A stretch of DNA of 64,000 bases from the NCBI GenBank assembly GCA_964484485.1, contig CAZAGD010000130.1, positions 339-64,338 of the forward strand. Direction: 5' to 3'. Position 1 is the first letter of the stretch, and every line of letters starts with the position of its first letter. The position numbers and the translations under genes are program-made. Under the pieces are notes generated by a model. The model saw only the letters and a list, made by a program, of their open reading frames with translations, did not search any database and was not told the origin of the DNA. Positions 51,344 through 64,000 of the stretch are shown piece by piece. This DNA is from an uncultured Syntrophaceae bacterium (GTDB taxonomy: Bacteria; Desulfobacterota; SM23-61).

Positions 51344-52036
51344 TTAATTTGGCAAAAGAATTCTTTGCGGATTTAACTCTTGGAGAAGATGAAAAAGAGA
51401 TTTTCCATCGGGGCGTTCGAGGAGATGTTCCCAACCCCCTATATGGCAAAAAATTACTCCTTCTTTGCTCTTAAAAATTTGGCGAATTTTCTCGGCCATA
51501 TAAAATTCTCGCTCTAAAATTTCTTTGGTTACTGGCCAAATTTTCGGTGGATTATGAAAAAGATGCTTAGCTTTGGCATATTGAGCGGAGATCTCTTTAA
51601 AAAATGATCTTGAGGGTAACATATGTAAGTTCATTAAATTTTCCGGGGAGACGAGTTCGGCTAAATAAGTGAGTTTTTCTTGGGCGTAAACAGAAAGATC
51701 GATATCAAAAAGGTAAGCATTATTTATTTGGGCATAAAATTTTGCCGCTCGCCACTCGAAAGGATCCTTGAGCAGGCAGAAGATACTCATAACTGCTCCG
51801 TGAGAAATAATTTCTTTTAAAGAAAGGCCATTTTCATTTTTCATGCAGCGAAGATTTTCGCGCAAAGTTCGACGGATTTCGGGAACATGCTTGGCGCGGA
51901 AAGATAATGAATATGGGCTAATTTCTACCGTAATTATCCTCGGTTTTATTTCAGAAAGAAGATTAAAAAGTTTCTTATAACCGTGGGGGTCCTGATGAAC
52001 TGTACCTATTAAAATCAACGAAGAAACATTTTCCAT
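51344..52036 (-). CDS. Hypothetical protein with TraB/PrgY/Tiki-like metal-binding motifs
   Basis: LIGTVH, ITVEIS, REFYMAEKI, IGGWEHL. Family assignment is an inference. Confidence 0.55.
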   Translation of the reverse strand: MENVSSLILIGTVHQDPHGYKKLFNLLSEIKPRIITVEISPYSLSFRAKHVPEIRRTLRENLRCMKNENGLSLKEIISHGAVMSIFCLLKDPFEWRAAKFYAQINNAYLFDIDLSVYAQEKLTYLAELVSPENLMNLHMLPSRSFFKEISAQYAKAKHLFHNPPKIWPVTKEILEREFYMAEKIRQIFKSKEGVIFCHIGGWEHLLERPDGKSLFHLLQELNPQRILLPN

Positions 52037-57588: not shown

Positions 57589-59451
57589 TTAGAGCAGGCG
57601 GCGATATTTCCATTGCGAGGCGACTAAAAGGGCAAATATACTAATCCCCAAAAGGTCGGTAAAGATTTCTGGAATCATTAGAATGAAACCGGAGAGAATA
57701 AAAAGCGCGGACTTGACCAAACCCAGGTCTTTCCATAACCAACGGTCAAAACCAAATGAGAAAGCCAGAACTCCCAAAATGGCCGTCACTGCACTTTGAA
57801 GAATCCAGAAAGGACTGCCTTCCCAGATAAGCACGGGATTATAAACGATTAAAAAAGGAACTAAGAATTTAGGAAAACCAAGCCGGCAAGCAATCCAGCC
57901 CACTTTCATGGGATCGCCGCCAGCGATTTGAGCCCCCGCATAAGCAGCCAAGGCAACTGGCGGAGTGATAGCGGAAAGAATGCATGACCCAAAGACAAAC
58001 ATATGGGCGGCGAGAACAGGCACTCCTAATTTGATGAGGGCCGGTGCTCCAATCATGGCCGCGAGGATATAGGCAGCGGTAGTGGGCATGCCCATACCCA
58101 GAATGATGCAGGCCACCATTACCAAAAGAAGGGTGGCTAAAAAGTTTCCTCCCGAAATTTTTAAGAGAATGCTCACGAAGCTTATTCCTAACCCAGTAAC
58201 TTCTAAAGCACCAACAACAATTCCCGCACATGCACAGGCCACTCCGATCATAATGGCATTGATCGCTCCAGTCTCTAATGATTTCCATATTCCCTTTAAG
58301 CCAATGCGGCTGCTCTTCCTAATCATAGCTACTCCTATTAAAACTATGGTAGCGGCGAAAGCAGCGCGGAAAGGAGTATATCCAGCGACCAGGAAGTAGA
58401 CCAAGGTTCCCATAGGAATTAGGAAGTGCAATCCGCCAGTAAACACCTCGCCCAAAACTGGAAGTTCCTTTACATCCATACCTCTTAGGCCTTTCTTCAT
58501 GGCTTCCGCATGAACTCCCGAGTAAATAGAGACATAGTAAAGCAGGGCGGGGAGTAAAGAGGCGAGACAAATTCTTGCATAAGATACGCCAATGAATTCA
58601 GCCATGACAAAAGCGGCTGCTCCTAAGATCGGTGGGGTGATTTGGCCCCCCGTAGATGCGGAAGCTTCTACGGCACCAGCAAAATTAGGTTGATAACCAA
58701 ATCGTTTCATTAAAGGAATGGTAAAAGTGCCAGTTCCGTAAACATTAGCGGCAGCGCTTCCGGAAATTGATCCAAACATAGCGCTGGAAATTACCGCTAC
58801 TTTGGCCGGACCACCGGTTAATCTGCCTACCATAGCCAGAGCCATATTGATGAAAAAGCGTCCCCCGCCAGTCACTTCCAAGAATGCTCCAAAAAGGACA
58901 AAGAGGTAGATATATGTAGCCGAAACTCCCGCAGGAATGCCAAACACTCCTTGAGGAATGAGAAACATATGCTCTATAAGAGTTAGAGGATTAGTCGCTC
59001 GGATGGTAAAAGGTTCGGGGAAGTAGTTGCCGAAAAGAGCATATAAAATAAAGATTCCTCCTATGGAAGTTAAAGCCCAACCAGCTACTCTCCTGGCTGC
59101 TTCTAAGGTAAGGAGGATAGTAAGAATGCCAAAAACTATATCTAAGGGGGCAATGGGTCCAAAATACAAGTCCCGTTTAATAATCCGATCGTGTTCTATG
59201 ATCATGTAAAAATCAATGGCCAGAGCTAGTCCGGCCAGGATAAGGTCAATGGGGTAGACGATTCGCGGAGGTAGTTTTCTCGAGACTGGTAAGACCAGAA
59301 AGGCCAAGGCCAGTAAGGTCAAAATGTGCACGGAGCGCTGCATCATCGTTTCGAAAACTCCGAAGGCTCCCGCATAAAGGTGGAAGAGGGAAAGGGAAAC
59401 GGCAATGCCCCCGATGATGGGTTTGGCAATTCGGTGTTCTTTAAGTTCCAT
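57589..59451 (-). CDS. TRAP fused 4TM/12TM permease (TAXI-associated)
   Basis: GGPAKVAV, ASTGGQITPP, GMGMPTTAAY, ITPPVALAAY. Confidence 0.9.
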   Translation of the reverse strand: MELKEHRIAKPIIGGIAVSLSLFHLYAGAFGVFETMMQRSVHILTLLALAFLVLPVSRKLPPRIVYPIDLILAGLALAIDFYMIIEHDRIIKRDLYFGPIAPLDIVFGILTILLTLEAARRVAGWALTSIGGIFILYALFGNYFPEPFTIRATNPLTLIEHMFLIPQGVFGIPAGVSATYIYLFVLFGAFLEVTGGGRFFINMALAMVGRLTGGPAKVAVISSAMFGSISGSAAANVYGTGTFTIPLMKRFGYQPNFAGAVEASASTGGQITPPILGAAAFVMAEFIGVSYARICLASLLPALLYYVSIYSGVHAEAMKKGLRGMDVKELPVLGEVFTGGLHFLIPMGTLVYFLVAGYTPFRAAFAATIVLIGVAMIRKSSRIGLKGIWKSLETGAINAIMIGVACACAGIVVGALEVTGLGISFVSILLKISGGNFLATLLLVMVACIILGMGMPTTAAYILAAMIGAPALIKLGVPVLAAHMFVFGSCILSAITPPVALAAYAGAQIAGGDPMKVGWIACRLGFPKFLVPFLIVYNPVLIWEGSPFWILQSAVTAILGVLAFSFGFDRWLWKDLGLVKSALFILSGFILMIPEIFTDLLGISIFALLVASQWKYRRLL

Positions 59452-59469
59452 GGAATTGCTCTTTCATAA

Positions 59470-59520
59470 AAAGTCCCCATGCCCATTTAACAAAGATAAA
59501 AAATAGGGCAAGGGGACTTT
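59470..59520 (-). terminator. Intercistronic hairpin between the TAXI gene and its permease
   Basis: aaagtccccatgccc / gggcaaggggacttt. Confidence 0.5.
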
Positions 59521-59568
59521 GGAAGTTATTCAGTGTTTAAGCTGCCCCAGCAAAGAAGCTACGATTGC

Positions 59569-60576
59569 TTACTTGAGTAAACCTTTTTCCCGGTAATACA
59601 TTTCCGCTCCTTTGTGGAGAGGAAGGCCGGTATTTTTGGCAATATCTGCTGATTTGAAGGTAACAAGACCTTTGTGGAAAGATTGGAATTTGCCTTCATT
59701 TTCCGCCAATGCTTTCACCAAGGTATAGACGATATCATCCCCGAGATCTGCCCGAACAGCGAAGACACCTGAATCTGCCGGCGCTAAGAGGTCATGATCC
59801 AATCCTTTAAAACTCCCAGCCCGCAATTTTTTCCTTTCCAAGAAACCGTATTTGCGAGTCATGATTTGATATAGATCATCATCCCACTTCAGGAATTTTA
59901 TATCGCGCACCGTGCTTAGCTCCATTAACCAGCCAATTCCTTCAGCTCCCACAGCCAATATTCCATCAGCATGACCATCCTTCACTAAACTTACGGCATC
60001 GGCCCAAGGAACAAAGTTCATCTTTCCACCCCAGGCATCAATATCTTCCCATTTGGTTCCCATTTCAGAGAAAGCCATCCGCCAGATCCACTCCGTGGCA
60101 TTTCCCCGAGCTAATGTGCATAGCCTGGCTTTCATTTTCTTCTTGACGATTTCCCCTACTGAATCTGCTGGAAAATCCTTGCGGACTACAGCAAAATAAA
60201 AATTATCGTCCTGGACACTAGCCATAGCTTTTACATTCGGTAATGGCTCAGGAAAAGGTCCTTTCCTTTCGTGGGCCATTTTGCTCATCACCAGAGTGGT
60301 GCTACCGAAATCAATTTCCCCTTTTTGAATTCGGTGAATATTGCCAATCCAGGCCCCCGGAACGATGGTTATTTTTATCTTTGGATAAATTTCTTCCACG
60401 ATCTTAGCTAAAGCAGTCACCTGCACATACCCAATTCCTCCCACCGCCCCTCCAGCGGCTTTCAAGGAAGCCGAGACTTTTGTTGGGTCAATTTTTTGAG
60501 CCTGGGAAAGGGGTGCAAAAAATAAAAGAAGATTAAAGGTAACTAAAAATAAAATACAAAAGATTTTTTTATTCAT
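59569..60576 (-). CDS. TAXI family TRAP solute-binding protein
   Basis: Signal peptide; GGAVGGIGY, DDIVYTLVKAL, PLHKGAEMYYREKG. Confidence 0.88.
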   Translation of the reverse strand: MNKKIFCILFLVTFNLLLFFAPLSQAQKIDPTKVSASLKAAGGAVGGIGYVQVTALAKIVEEIYPKIKITIVPGAWIGNIHRIQKGEIDFGSTTLVMSKMAHERKGPFPEPLPNVKAMASVQDDNFYFAVVRKDFPADSVGEIVKKKMKARLCTLARGNATEWIWRMAFSEMGTKWEDIDAWGGKMNFVPWADAVSLVKDGHADGILAVGAEGIGWLMELSTVRDIKFLKWDDDLYQIMTRKYGFLERKKLRAGSFKGLDHDLLAPADSGVFAVRADLGDDIVYTLVKALAENEGKFQSFHKGLVTFKSADIAKNTGLPLHKGAEMYYREKGLLK

Positions 60577-60689
60577 GAAAATCCTCCTTTTTATTGCGGT
60601 AATTTTCCCTCCCTGGGGGGAAGAATCATTTTTAGCAAATAAATTATATAATAAATAAAATCTCTTTGGTCAACATTTTTCTCATAAAT

Positions 60690-60855
60690 ATTAATGGCAG
60701 CATAAAATAAATGACATCTTGACGCAGGTTCAGCTTGTCGCTTGCTAAATATAATTCATAGCGTAAGGATTCAGCGCCCCCCAACCCCCTCTTAAAACCC
60801 AACTTTTCTGTCACTCCTACGCAAGCGGGAGTCCATAAATGGCTTGAAAATACTG
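60690..60855. repeat. Degenerate repeat remnants
   Basis: attaatggcagcataaaataaatgacatcttga matches the ends at 16365 and 34667; gtcactcctacgcaagcgggagtcca...ctggattc belongs to the palindrome family. Confidence 0.6.
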
Positions 60856-61027
60856 GATTCAAGCGGCGGAGCCATAACTTCTTTTTCGCCCTAAAGACGC
60901 TCCCTCTATTTGGATTAGCTCATGGTTGGCTATTTTGGAAAAAATTTGGAAATCGAAAAAGTTGCAAATTTAAGTAGATCAGGTTAAATTAATGGCAACT
61001 TTTTAAGTTGGAAAACAACATAATTTT

Positions 61028-61879
61028 ATGCTTTCTTCTGACCAAGAAAATTTTATTCTGCAGCATGCTTATATACCCGAGCATATAATCAATTTAATGG
61101 TCGGACTCTCCCGAGGAGAGCCGTTCTATGAAAATGGTTACGTTTATTTTGTAAAGAAAGATGTACTTATTTTTATCGGCTATCGCTTACCGGAGATTTT
61201 TCTATCAGAGGATTGCGGTCCATTTATGCGCCAGATTATTAAAAAATTTCGCCCAGAAACCACTTGGTTTATTGCCCCGGAAATCCCTCCCTCGTTAAAG
61301 AATGAAGTGCAGGAAAGAGAAAGTGACTTTTACTATATATTAAAAGTTGCCTCAACGAGTTTTCGGCAAAGGTTACTGCGCGAAGCCGAAAAAGCTGCCC
61401 GTCAGTTAGTAGTAACAAAGTCACGCGAATTTTCAGCGGAGCATATTTTGCTCACGAAAGAATACTTAGGCCAAGAGAATTTACCTGGAAAAATAAAAGA
61501 GCTATTTAACCGGCTTCCGGAATATATAAAATATTCCTCCTCCTCCCTAATCTTGAGCGCTTGGGATGAAGGGGGAAAGCTAAGCGCTTATTATGTATTA
61601 GAATTGGCGGGCGGAAGATTTATCACTTATGTCTTGGGAGGCTATTCCAAGAAAAATTATGTCCCCCACGCTTCTGATCTTTTGTTTTTAGAAATGTATA
61701 AACTGGCCAAAGAAATGCAGAAGGAATATATCCATTTGGGTTTAGGGGTAAATGAAGGAATCCGCAGATTTAAAATAAAATGGGGAGGAGTTCCGTACCT
61801 GCAATATGAGGCTGGAGCCATCTGGAGTAAAAGCAAATTATATTTTCCTTTTTTTAATACTTTAAAAGAAAAGTTATGA
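61028..61879 (+). CDS. Hypothetical FemX/GNAT-fold protein (paralog 1)
   Basis: C-terminal ASDLLF..IHLGLGVNEGIRRFKIKWGG resembles Fem/Acetyltransf_6/DUF2156 C-termini; paralogous to 62730. Confidence 0.6.
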   Translation: MLSSDQENFILQHAYIPEHIINLMVGLSRGEPFYENGYVYFVKKDVLIFIGYRLPEIFLSEDCGPFMRQIIKKFRPETTWFIAPEIPPSLKNEVQERESDFYYILKVASTSFRQRLLREAEKAARQLVVTKSREFSAEHILLTKEYLGQENLPGKIKELFNRLPEYIKYSSSSLILSAWDEGGKLSAYYVLELAGGRFITYVLGGYSKKNYVPHASDLLFLEMYKLAKEMQKEYIHLGLGVNEGIRRFKIKWGGVPYLQYEAGAIWSKSKLYFPFFNTLKEKL

Positions 61880-62730
61880 AATTACCAAAAATCCTCTCTT
61901 CCTTCATAAGCAGGGGAGAGAAAAATTTAAAGATGGTTTGGGAAGTTAGTAATCAGGGCCGAGTTAATTTTCTTATTGGCACGGCCCATTTTTCTCCTTA
62001 TCATTATCGAAAATCTCTTCACTATTTAATAGAAAAATCTGCTAAAGTCATATTTGAAGGCCCCCTTGATGAGGAAAGCAGACAAAAAATAGTGGCTAGG
62101 GGAATGCAGAGCAATGGGAGAGATATTTTAAAGAGTTTGGATGAGCCGACTGTTTTAAAATTAAGAAAAATTATGGAAGATCTTTTCGTTTCTCAAAACG
62201 TTTTGTCTGTTATCTCCCCATGGCCGTTAAGCAAAAGTCAATTTTTATTTGATTTTTTCCAAAATCGCCGACCTTGGTTGGCTTTTTTCCAAATTTGGGC
62301 GCACTTTTTAAAGAAGCATGGCTGGCTATACTCCCTTGATCTGGAAGCTTGGCAAATGGCCCGGAAGTTGGGCAAAGAAATTGTTTTTTTGGAAACCATT
62401 GAAGAGCAAATTGCCGGTTTAGAAGGCATTCCCTTAGAAAGGATCGTTAATTTTCTAAAAAAGATAGACTTTTGGGATGAGTTAGCTAAAAATTATGCTC
62501 AACTTTATTCCGAGGGAAAGATAGAGGCTTTGTTAGCAGTTACGAAAGATTTTCCCACGCGCTGTCCAGCGATTGTGGAAAATAGGGACCCGGTTATGTT
62601 TAATCGGTTGCGCAGCATTTTTGCGGAAGGCCAAGGGATTGCCTTTTTAGGGACAGTTCATCTTCCCGGAATAAATAAAAGATTGCAGCAGGAAGGATAC
62701 GAGCTAAAACAGATTTTAAACATTAACTAA
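61876..62730 (+). CDS. TraB/GumN (Tiki-like) family protein
   Basis: FLIGTAH, VIFE, LETIEEQI, NRDPVM, GTVHLPGI..LQQEGY; overlaps both neighbouring genes. Confidence 0.75.
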   Translation: MKLPKILSSFISRGEKNLKMVWEVSNQGRVNFLIGTAHFSPYHYRKSLHYLIEKSAKVIFEGPLDEESRQKIVARGMQSNGRDILKSLDEPTVLKLRKIMEDLFVSQNVLSVISPWPLSKSQFLFDFFQNRRPWLAFFQIWAHFLKKHGWLYSLDLEAWQMARKLGKEIVFLETIEEQIAGLEGIPLERIVNFLKKIDFWDELAKNYAQLYSEGKIEALLAVTKDFPTRCPAIVENRDPVMFNRLRSIFAEGQGIAFLGTVHLPGINKRLQQEGYELKQILNIN

Positions 62731-63563
62731 TGCTTACGCCTAAGGAAGAAGAATATCTTAAAAATCAGGCTTACATCCCCGAGCATCTGCCCGGATATGG
62801 AGCCGTAATCTCGCAGACTGAGCCTCTGCTCGAAGACGATTTTCTTTTTTATGTTGGGAAGGGATTCCTCATATTTGTGGGTTATCCTCTGAGCAAAAAA
62901 TTTATCAAGAGAGAGGCCCAAAAAATTTTACAAAAAGTGATTAAACGTTTTCAACCAGCCCAAGTAGCGATTTTGGGTCCCGAGATTCCTCTACCCAGAG
63001 TAAATCTCGTCCAAGAGGACGCTTATTTTAAATTAGATTTAGCCAACCTGAGTATTCCTGGTAAAGTTAAAAATATGATAAAAAGGGCCCATAAAGAAAT
63101 TCGAGTAGAAATGAGCCGAGAGTTTAAAGATGAACATCAGCAGCTCATCAACGAGTTTTTGCATACTCATCCCCTCGACGAAGCCACCAAATATATTTAC
63201 CAAAGAATTCCGCAGTACTTAACAGCAACCTCTTCAGCCTGTCTTTTTAATGCGCGCAATGGACAAGGGAACTTGGTCGCCTTTGATGTGGCCGAATTTG
63301 GAGCCCAGGCCTATGCCTTTTACATGTTCAATTTTCGGTCGGCTCGTTATCATGTCCCCGGCACTTCTGATCTCCTTCTTTATTCCATAATTAAAGAAGC
63401 TCAAGAGCGCGGCAAAACCTTCATTAATCTGGGATTAGGTATAAATGGGGGAGTTACTTTTTTCAAGAAGAAATGGGGAGGTGTTCCCTTTCTCCAGTAT
63501 AAATATACAGTTTATCATCCTGATTATCCTCGGTCCTTAGAGGGCCTTTGGCAGAAGATGTAA
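62730..63563 (+). CDS. Hypothetical FemX/GNAT-fold protein (paralog 2)
   Basis: Shares AYIPEH, LIF(I/V)GY, SDLL, LGLG(V/I)N, FKxKWGGVP with 61028. Confidence 0.6.
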   Translation: MLTPKEEEYLKNQAYIPEHLPGYGAVISQTEPLLEDDFLFYVGKGFLIFVGYPLSKKFIKREAQKILQKVIKRFQPAQVAILGPEIPLPRVNLVQEDAYFKLDLANLSIPGKVKNMIKRAHKEIRVEMSREFKDEHQQLINEFLHTHPLDEATKYIYQRIPQYLTATSSACLFNARNGQGNLVAFDVAEFGAQAYAFYMFNFRSARYHVPGTSDLLLYSIIKEAQERGKTFINLGLGINGGVTFFKKKWGGVPFLQYKYTVYHPDYPRSLEGLWQKM

Positions 63564-63568
63564 TTAAA

Positions 63569-64000
63569 ATGAGTATATATTTTTGGAAGAAATTTTGGTC
63601 AAGAAAACCTAAGAAAAAATTTGGAGCGTGGCAGATAGAATTGACTTCGCGTTGTCCCTTGCAGTGTCGGATGTGCAATCGCATAGAATATCGCGATTTT
63701 CCCCGGCAAGACATGCCCTTCGCCAATTTTAAAATGATACTGCCTTATTTAAAAGAAGTGGAGACAGTCATTTTAGAGGGGTGGGGAGAATCACTTCTTT
63801 ATAAAAATCTCCCGGAATGCATTCGCTTAGTCAAGAAGGAGGGTAGTCAAGTCGGGTTTGTAACTAGCGGGCAAGGTCTAAATGAAGGTTATATTAATGA
63901 ACTCTTGGCGGCGGGCGTAGATTTTATGGGTTTCTCTTTAGCGGGCACGACGGCCCAGACTCATAATGCCATCAGAAGAAACTCTTCCTTGACGGAATTG
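63569..64000 (+). CDS. Radical SAM protein; runs off the right window edge
   Basis: Not in the ORF track. ATG at 63569 gives ...WQIELTSRCPLQCRMC (CX3CX2C), LEGWGESLLY, VTSG, FSLAG. Confidence 0.85.
   Translation, partial: MSIYFWKKFWSRKPKKKFGAWQIELTSRCPLQCRMCNRIEYRDFPRQDMPFANFKMILPYLKEVETVILEGWGESLLYKNLPECIRLVKKEGSQVGFVTSGQGLNEGYINELLAAGVDFMGFSLAGTTAQTHNAIRRNSSLTEL

Follow-up and report, generated by a model that had tools for sequence, protein, structure and literature searches.

To what end would an anaerobic bacterium keep, in one tightly packed set of genes, two paralogs resembling aminoacyl-tRNA-dependent ligases, a hydrolase-like protein and a radical enzyme? The question is raised by the last four genes of a 64,000-nucleotide stretch of DNA (the window; positions 339 to 64,338 of contig CAZAGD010000130.1, C130 for short, assembly GCA_964484485.1) from an uncultured Syntrophaceae bacterium. 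We refer to these genes, in order, as A, T, B and R: A and B encode FemX-type proteins, T a member of the TraB/PrgY/GumN family, and R a radical SAM protein. A preliminary description, made from the sequence of the window, had suggested an undescribed pathway of peptide or protein modification, or of metalloenzyme or cofactor maturation. The main clue to the function is invisible from the window alone: the cassette is restricted almost wholly to genomes carrying dsrA and is physically linked to a YeiH-type transporter and to dsrAB. The reading that we favour, tentatively, is a tRNA-dependent pathway that would add amino acids to, and trim them from, a small, non-peptide acceptor and that would be linked to sulfite handling.

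A genome scan confirmed 249 stretches, the best 80 of which correspond to 76 loci, many of them ending at contig edges. B is present in 74 of these loci, T and R in 50 each, and A in 48, with all four genes in 33. In 46 of the 48 loci with A, the next gene is T, and the gene orders include ATBR (20 loci), ATB (10), BATR (6) and BRAT (3); gene order thus ties A to T rather than to B and lends no support to the heterodimeric transferase suggested in the preliminary description. In the phylum sample of 261 genomes, A/B genes are carried by 25 genomes from 12 families, and the T subfamily (E<1e-20) occurs in exactly the same 25, five others having only weak generic TraB matches. Moreover, A and T form one protein in spirochaetes and in many Desulfovibrionaceae: the best 120 matches to an A-T fusion query comprise 115 A+T and five A+T+B proteins, and a named Desulfovibrio strain carries a fusion (P0243). 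Because A/B and T mark the same 25 genomes, A precedes T, and fusions exist, A-T-B is the core of the cassette; R often accompanies it without being obligatory and has a pairing of its own with the YeiH-type transporter. The joint conservation of the gene set, on which the preliminary description had staked its proposal, was thereby borne out by phylogenetic profiling. The hosts span a hot-spring lineage to relatives of Desulfovibrio and Mailhella, archaeal and Gemmatimonadota genomes carry B alone, and plasmids yielded no match to the cassette. In the genome from which the window comes (G000), A, B and T are each single-copy.

The recurrent neighbors in the 76 loci are the YeiH-type transporter (PF03601; 36 loci), NF038143 proteins (27), a Ca/Na antiporter (13), dsrAB (10 loci, within 10 kb of the cassette) and an alpha/beta hydrolase (9). 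Aldehyde oxidoreductase (AOR) genes and dsrN adjoin the cassette in five loci each, and four of the five loci next to AOR genes are arranged alike, as if they were a single lineage. In G000, YeiH, two NF038143 genes and the hydrolase lie together on contig C126. NF038143 was rejected as a core part, being found in five of the 25 carriers, with eight of the 13 NF038143 genomes devoid of A/B; no structural neighbors outside its own family were found for it in Atlas (TM <=0.38 by query). Several other observations were made on these loci. The C126 region (L078; 392-5245) comprises the transporter, the two NF038143 paralogs, the hydrolase in convergent orientation and a CitMHS-type permease. Twelve of the 13 NF038143 genomes carry dsrA. 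LarA-type racemase genes lie near A-T-B in L013, L033, L038, L044, L067, L079, L082 and L085, that of L013 matching NF052595 above the cut-off. In L087 (5453-7429; genome G121), a 658-amino-acid frame combines A with the opening third of T and the later portion of R, the last lacking CX3CX2C, and is probably the remnant of an in-frame deletion of the cassette.

The association with dsrA is close: the gene is present in 24 of the 25 carriers against 137 of all 261 genomes (12 carrier families; p 1e-6 in a test naive to kinship), and in all 18 carriers outside the organism's own family (Fisher p 5e-6, overstated by kinship). The one carrier among the 25 without dsrA, G103, is an assembly of 760 contigs in which an aprA fragment is present. 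Ten further genomes were reached via other loci; seven have dsrA above the cut-off (three spirochaetes, one Chloroflexota, one Nitrospinota, one archaeon and one other bacterium), one has a dsrB-like match only, and two small assemblies have none. In a sample of 101 spirochaete genomes, dsrA occurs in seven and A/B in two, both dsrA-positive; the sample was centered on one of these carriers, and the other is a relative of that one. The YeiH subfamily (E<1e-120) follows a similar distribution, with 44 of its 47 genomes carrying dsrA; it is found in 20 of the 25 carriers and in 19 of the 24 dsrA-positive carriers versus 44 of the 137 dsrA genomes, and its gene is located within 700 bp of the cassette or of an NF038143 gene in 33 of the 76 loci. 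In Salmonella, YeiH is reported to confer sulfite resistance (10.1101/2025.07.27.662810). We consider it probable that the function of the cassette is tied to Dsr/sulfite physiology.

The G000 genome (97.7% complete) encodes dsrAB-dsrN on contig C225, dsrMKJOP-like genes and at least eight AOR-like genes, with no sat, aprA or xsc above the cut-off; from its genes, the organism is a sulfite reducer. On the side of sulfonate catabolism, for which xsc was sought, a crude motif scan, run without a positive control, also found no glycyl-radical enzyme in this genome. Among dsrA genomes, the cassette is present in 11 of 26 that lack aprA versus 13 of 111 that bear it (p 0.0008), but we do not claim a link to lost sulfate activation: without the organism's own family, the counts are 5 of 20 versus 13 of 111 (p 0.15). 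No column of DsrA or DsrB separates carriers from non-carriers beyond clade structure; the maximum column difference is 0.49 in DsrA against a shuffled 95th percentile of 0.51 (23 versus 20 sequences), and 0.56 in DsrB against 0.53 (22 versus 20). Separately, a single cluster of genome G089 (L115) comprises YeiH, a sensor kinase and response regulator (identified by sequence), NF038143, Usp and SulP; it resembles the molybdate-responsive DVU0539-DVU0545 of D. vulgaris as described in 10.1101/2021.01.13.426591.

What chemistry could such a cassette bring? A and B are, as had been proposed from the window, diverged paralogs: they are 36% identical across 261 aligned columns (E 8e-57) and have in common the motifs AYIPEH, SDLL, LGLG and FKxKWGGVP. 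Neither scores above any Pfam or NCBIfam cut-off, and nearly all of their relatives at E<=0.001 (1114 and 550, respectively) are unnamed. All four proteins of the cassette come from known superfamilies; A and B fit no named family. Among 35 A/B members, the commonest Pfam match is PF09924 (13 of 35, best E 3e-7), which gives B 16.3 bits against a cut-off of 27.5 and has no match above the cut-off in G000; PF02388 has no match in G000 or among the 35 members, and a weak match to TIGR03019 (pepcterm_femAB) reaches 24 bits. The FemX/GNAT fold claimed in the preliminary description held up when B was modeled by AlphaFold2 from 113 sequences (pLDDT 93.5). FemX was the top Foldseek match of the model (E 8e-12) and, by VIA, FemX 4ii9 aligned with a Z score of 20.1 and a root-mean-square deviation of 3.5 over 261 residues. 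Next came Sbb17 (19.4), DUF2156-like 2hqy (19.4) and MprF (19.0), with the matches to Sbb17, 2hqy, MprF and FemA spanning 17.7-19.8, whereas other tandem GNATs scored at most 15.2 and single GNATs at most 13.5. As far as the model goes, the best fold matches of B are throughout aminoacyl-tRNA transferases or their close kin; L/F-, Bpt and ATE1 transferases are not among the matches listed. Two GNAT domains in the FemX arrangement are thus indicated for B by the model and for A by its 36% identity to B together with profile comparison, hhalign giving probabilities of 97% for A and 95% for B against a 12-sequence FemAB-like profile. Profile-profile comparison alone worked: when L140 entered as a lone sequence, hhalign with A4 gave a probability of 0.6. 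A PDB sequence search with the A/B profile returned nothing meaningful (best E 0.18).

Two features point to the donor. A Phe-Lys pair (F248/K249 in A, F245/K246 in B) is conserved in 172 A and 94 B rows, with Phe at 100% and Lys at 100% and 98%, respectively. Through the bridge protein L140, it aligns with GLWAFKK of S. aureus FemX and falls on Phe304-Lys305 of Weissella viridescens FemX, just after Tyr302/303, this mapping being indirect, via L140, and not a superposition. In addition, both paralogs have a basic helix with the same spacing as PSKTKSKIKRP of FemX: in B, it occupies residues 111-121 of the model (112-122 in the sequence), with K112 in 68%, R119 in 97% and R/K122 in 95% of the rows, and in A, Lys or Arg is found at position 112 in 69% and at 119 in 88%. 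A basic helix and a Lys305 equivalent are described as the marks of aminoacyl-tRNA-dependent GNATs (PMC9351520, PMC12945691). Judging by the model and these motifs, the donor used by A and B is probably aminoacyl-tRNA. A quick tree of 85 of the 157 rows places A and B in distinct clades (SH-aLRT 99), each with conserved class-specific residues (G204/H214/R247 in A; Y23/F200/N201/G211 in B), which suggests that both paralogs are active enzymes with different specificities. The terminal amphipathic helices have medians of 0.46-0.51, compared with 0.41-0.45 for control segments, and stay below the control 90th percentile; the argument for a membrane anchor was dropped because these termini do not exceed the controls. 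A PF13480 tandem GNAT also occurs elsewhere in G000 (L099; contig C238, 450-3303), together with a GT4 glycosyltransferase, the N-terminal motif of which we take to be MshA-like, and a metallo-beta-lactamase-fold protein 40% identical to one found beside the cassette in L024.

T matches PF01963 with 111.7 bits (cut-off 26.8) and, in agreement with what had been noticed in the window, has the TraB/GumN motifs and no signal peptide: none of 44 stand-alone T proteins has a hydrophobic or signal-like N-terminus. Across 186 rows, H38 is conserved in 181, E61 in 183, and E173, R237 and H262 in 185 each, with D155, Q178, D238 and an FP(T/S)R motif near-invariant as well; presumably, the RD of T stands where the TraB family usually has RN. 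These residues amount to a 2His/2Glu plus Arg active site, the match to the residues in PMC6254334 being made from motif order. The T model (pLDDT 90.9) has no near relative among solved structures; its best match is a Tetrahymena complex IV chain (Z 10.9), with ChaN at 5.8 and HopBA1 at 5.1, within the range of unrelated rows. Enzymes of the TIKI/Ere fold are reported to use a 2His/2Glu site in the hydrolysis of esters or peptides, possibly independently of metal (PMC6254334). Given its conserved residues, T probably acts as a hydrolase; the earlier designation as a metalloprotease is too narrow with respect to both bond and metal. Elsewhere in the window, a 230-amino-acid open reading frame (ORF; Table 1) without a Pfam or NCBIfam match carries GTVH, then a Glu following the next strand, and HIGG at the C-terminus, and resembles a second, divergent TraB/ChaN/Ere-fold protein, its match to the T profile being marginal (E 7e-4 in a single comparison; hhalign 1%).

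R consists of a radical SAM domain and PF13186, with the CX3CX2C (C29/C33/C36) and GWGE motifs seen in the window. Its complete sequence has four conserved C-terminal Cys instead of the seven-Cys SPASM motif, a domain that the preliminary description had proposed to look for downstream: in 31 rows, C252 and C271 are invariant and C357/C360 are conserved in at least 90%, and the CxxC is also present in three Desulfovibrio-like rows. The solved proteins that best match R by profile, nearly tied, are BtrN (E 3e-17), PqqE and BlsE; BtrN is described as having four auxiliary Cys and a fully ligated site, SPASM being a seven-Cys motif (PMC6231123). On the basis of this sequence signature, R is assigned to the Twitch subclass with one auxiliary cluster site. 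There is no RiPP (ribosomally made, post-translationally modified peptide) recognition element in R, the core of which begins at residue 22 and leaves no room for one. The nearest NCBIfam models are TIGR04317 (153.2 bits, cut-off 380) and TIGR04311 (138.5 bits, cut-off 400). The R family is broad (75 of 261 genomes at E<=1e-45), and SDR genes are located directly upstream of R homologs in five of 20 regions and fused in L051 and L058. R homologs stand beside YeiH without A-T-B in 14 of 20 regions, those 14 having been preselected by coordinates, and also in L100 and L118; some loci belong to both sets (L002, for example, is G071), so that the two counts are not independent. As an observation in its own right, L100, L118 and L120-L133 contain an apparently undescribed pair, found in dsrA genomes whether A-T-B is present or not: an R-family Twitch enzyme and a transporter of the YeiH subfamily.

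Taken together, these features could describe one machine with two tRNA-dependent writers and a hydrolase. A and B would take amino acids from charged tRNA and attach them to an amine or alcohol acceptor that is small and not a peptide, using two different amino acids or acceptors, as the class-specific residues hint; T would hydrolyze an ester or amide bond of the kind made by A and B; and R would oxidize or epimerize the same scaffold in an optional radical step. The pathway would serve sulfite handling, together with the YeiH-type transporter, in DsrAB microbes. The closest working logic would be that of dehydrophos, in which two FemX-like ligases act sequentially on a small amine, or the turnover of a product by a synthase and a hydrolase; in the dehydrophos pathway, residues are removed by a peptidase. 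We place a small, non-peptide acceptor first because there is no precursor peptide, no DsrA/DsrB covariation and no flippase or cell-wall context, and because R has a BtrN-type site and SDR partners. A bolder version, to which we give about one chance in four, is that the cassette represents an unrecognized accessory branch of Dsr, in which a tRNA-dependent writer-eraser (A-T-B, often one polypeptide) and a Twitch enzyme make, or reversibly attach, a new amino-acid-based sulfur carrier or protein modification used in sulfite respiration, and which has spread between phyla and into an archaeon with dsrAB.

The acceptor is where the alternatives part. It might be a membrane lipid. A and B would then be soluble synthases of aminoacyl lipids, which T, together with the linked alpha/beta hydrolase, would trim; R and SDR would remodel the head group, and NF038143 or YeiH would provide membrane access. 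The catalytic domains of MprF and aminoacyl-phosphatidylglycerol synthases indeed rank high as fold matches (Z 17.7-19.0), no Pfam family is matched more often than PF09924, the hydrolase recurs, and sulfur-containing aminolipids without explanation have been reported in a sulfate reducer (PMC11181052). Yet A and B fall below the PF09924 cut-off, lack a flippase domain, carry a beta-strand YxF/G as in FemX, and have amphipathic termini no better than control segments. The corresponding strand motif of MprF is DxxR. A lipid would also leave unexplained why the cassette tracks dsrAB into other phyla, and we regard this alternative as rather unlikely. About equally doubtful is that the acceptor is a Dsr-linked protein (DsrC, DsrAB, YeiH or NF038143), aminoacylated at Lys or at its N-terminal amine, which T would untag and R would modify further. 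FemX itself acts on a peptidyl-Lys amine, endopeptidases are known among TIKI-fold enzymes (PMC6254334), the writer is fused to the eraser, and the cassette is tied to dsrA and, in some loci, close to dsrAB; against these points, no DsrA or DsrB column sorts carriers from non-carriers beyond clade structure, and NF038143 is found in just a fifth of the carriers.

The maturation of a cofactor had been among the earlier suggestions and now appears improbable, be it for a siroheme derivative for DsrAB or for tungstopterin for aldehyde oxidoreductases. Although TIGR04317 and TIGR04311 are the nearest models to R, AOR and dsrN genes adjoin some loci, and G000 has multiple AOR-like genes, R is far under both cut-offs, most of the AOR-adjacent loci look like one lineage, siroheme offers none of the amine or alcohol acceptors that FemX chemistry needs, and most dsrA genomes lack the cassette. 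Still less likely is aminoacylation of the cell wall, in Fem-like side chains of peptidoglycan, or of a surface polysaccharide, T being the peptidase that edits the product: FemX is the top fold match and TIGR03019 matches weakly, but G000 has no PF02388 match, genes for mur or polysaccharide functions are absent from the conserved neighbors, B is present in one archaeal genome, and the dsr link would go unexplained. Finally, the reading of R as a peptide maturase, a radical SAM protein with a PF13186 match working beside a peptidase-like protein on an unseen RiPP precursor, is largely excluded by the four-Cys Twitch signature, the missing recognition element and the small ORFs around the cassette. 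No precursor peptide was evident in the window, nor was one found among 542 ORFs of 15-90 amino acids lying no more than 700 bp from 53 loci; apart from a ferredoxin confined to one lineage, these ORFs cluster only as shadows or fragments of neighboring genes.

Several points weigh against the small-acceptor pathway that we favour. It stands as a prediction from computational evidence. Tandem GNATs of the PF13480 type, for which the donor is unknown, also have an FKxxWG motif. The cassette is found in only 24 of the 137 dsrA genomes and is patchy within genera (three of six dsrA genomes of g68, one of six of g34); because so few dsrA genomes carry it and its distribution within genera is patchy, it is accessory and not required for sulfite reduction. 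There is no dsrA in the carriers G261 and G270, 2.3-Mb assemblies of unknown completeness, or in G103, and the three spirochaete carriers share their context and probably represent one event. The YeiH proteins considered here score below the TIGR00698 cut-off (93 versus 232.6), and a PSE transporter of D. vulgaris has a molybdate phenotype of unclear meaning (10.1101/2021.01.13.426591). As for R, its BtrN and PqqE scores are nearly tied, it adjoins A-T-B in only 15 of the 25 carriers, and many R genomes are without A-T-B; Twitch enzymes act on peptides too, as does SkfB, and sequence clustering is cautioned not to predict function (both PMC6231123).

The tight coupling of the four genes (Table 1) that first drew attention to the locus is real: A and T overlap by ATGA (61876-61879), T and B by TAATG (62728-62732), and a 5-bp gap separates the TAA of B ending at 63563 from the ATG of R. 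A contig from another run (X6), which covers L001 1699-4791, that is, the end of A through most of R, shows the same order, and the arrangement is therefore not an assembly artifact. X6 differs from C130 by 188 substitutions in 3094 bases and one inserted base; because this sole insertion is located in the B-R spacer, the ATG start of R is favoured over a TTG at 63548. The operon does continue past the window edge, as had been supposed, with R running on for 669 bp to contig position 65007 (window 64669), but it ends with R: C130 stops 81 bp later, and the genes beyond R in the closest relative, encoding a TonB-plug protein and then a methyltransferase, are not conserved neighbors. Promoter-like sites are at chance level (2 versus 2.1 expected). 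Of 60 upstream regions, one has a Rex-like site and none a sigma-54 site, which is no more than in shuffled sequences. Upstream of A, the window has a composite repeat with 177 blastn matches in the genome, some of about 110 bp at 92%, at which many loose-ended contigs pile up, and a divergent transport locus that is not a conserved neighbor.

Table 1. Cassette genes and other features of the window
Feature	Position	Strand	Description
Gene A	61028..61879	+	283 aa (amino acids), FemX-type double-GNAT, paralog class A; predicted aminoacyl-tRNA-dependent transferase
Gene T	61876..62730	+	284 aa, cytoplasmic TraB/PrgY/GumN (TIKI-fold); predicted ester/amide hydrolase
Gene B	62730..63563	+	277 aa, FemX-type double-GNAT, paralog class B; predicted aminoacyl-tRNA-dependent transferase
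Gene R, 5' part	63569..64000	+	radical SAM with four-Cys Twitch domain; 366 aa when complete
Composite repeat	60681-60870		intergenic
Transport locus	57589-60576	-	DctM-type TRAP membrane protein and NMT1_3 (TAXI-type) solute receptor
TraB/ChaN/Ere-like ORF	51344-52036	-	230 aa

Dissimilatory sulfite reduction drives the sulfur cycle and the production of sulfide in the gut, and the genes behind it are regarded as well catalogued. What sets the cassette above an ordinary orphan operon is its link with dsrAB across phyla. Literature searches on NF038143, on GumN with radical SAM, on YeiH with dsrAB, and on TIGR04311/TIGR04317, covering sources other than subscription papers and supplements, returned no description, in line with the initial view of the pathway as undescribed, and a term search of the main text of the Dsr evolution paper PMC11406059 found no mention of the cassette genes. 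The combination of FemX-type transfer, TraB-type hydrolysis and Twitch radical chemistry was not found elsewhere in the searches made. If the favoured reading is true, a cytoplasmic subfamily of TraB/GumN proteins would for the first time be placed in a biochemical context, and anaerobic energy metabolism would gain a tRNA-dependent chemistry. The system is open to direct testing, given that the fusions are soluble proteins and that a named Desulfovibrio strain carries one.

How, then, does the cassette compare with known systems? A and B resemble the FemX/FemABX ligases (W. viridescens 1NE9/4II9, S. aureus 6SNR) in the double-GNAT fold (Z ~20), the basic helix, the Tyr-bearing strand and the Phe-Lys motif, but they are only 14-15% identical to them, shorter (~280 amino acids), without a PF02388 match or cell-wall context, and they occur as paired paralogs fused to a TraB protein. 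Closer in size, at ~290 amino acids, and likewise stand-alone are the natural-product transferases DhpH-C/DhpK, Orf11/Sba18/Sbb17, VlmA and PacB (Sbb17, Z 19.4). DhpH-C and DhpK provide a case of two such transferases in one pathway (PMC12945691). Unlike these, the cassette is found without an antibiotic cluster, in anaerobic DsrAB hosts, and with a dedicated TraB-family protein and a Twitch enzyme. With MprF and the aminoacyl-phosphatidylglycerol synthases, the cassette has in common the fold (Z 17.7-19.0), a weak PF09924 match and the logic of a synthase plus a hydrolase, hydrolase partners of MprF-type synthases being known; A and B differ in being soluble proteins of 277-283 amino acids with no membrane domain, below the cut-off and with a FemX-like strand motif. 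T shares PF01963, the two His, the Glu residues and the Arg with the TraB/PrgY/GumN and TIKI-fold hydrolases (Tiki, Ere, RRSP) but is cytoplasmic, has an extra FPTR motif and is fused to a transferase. R, in turn, resembles the Twitch enzymes BtrN and BlsE, as well as TIGR04317/TIGR04311, in having one four-Cys auxiliary site, no recognition element and its best profile matches, whereas it scores below both NCBIfam cut-offs and keeps partners of its own: YeiH, SDR and A-T-B.

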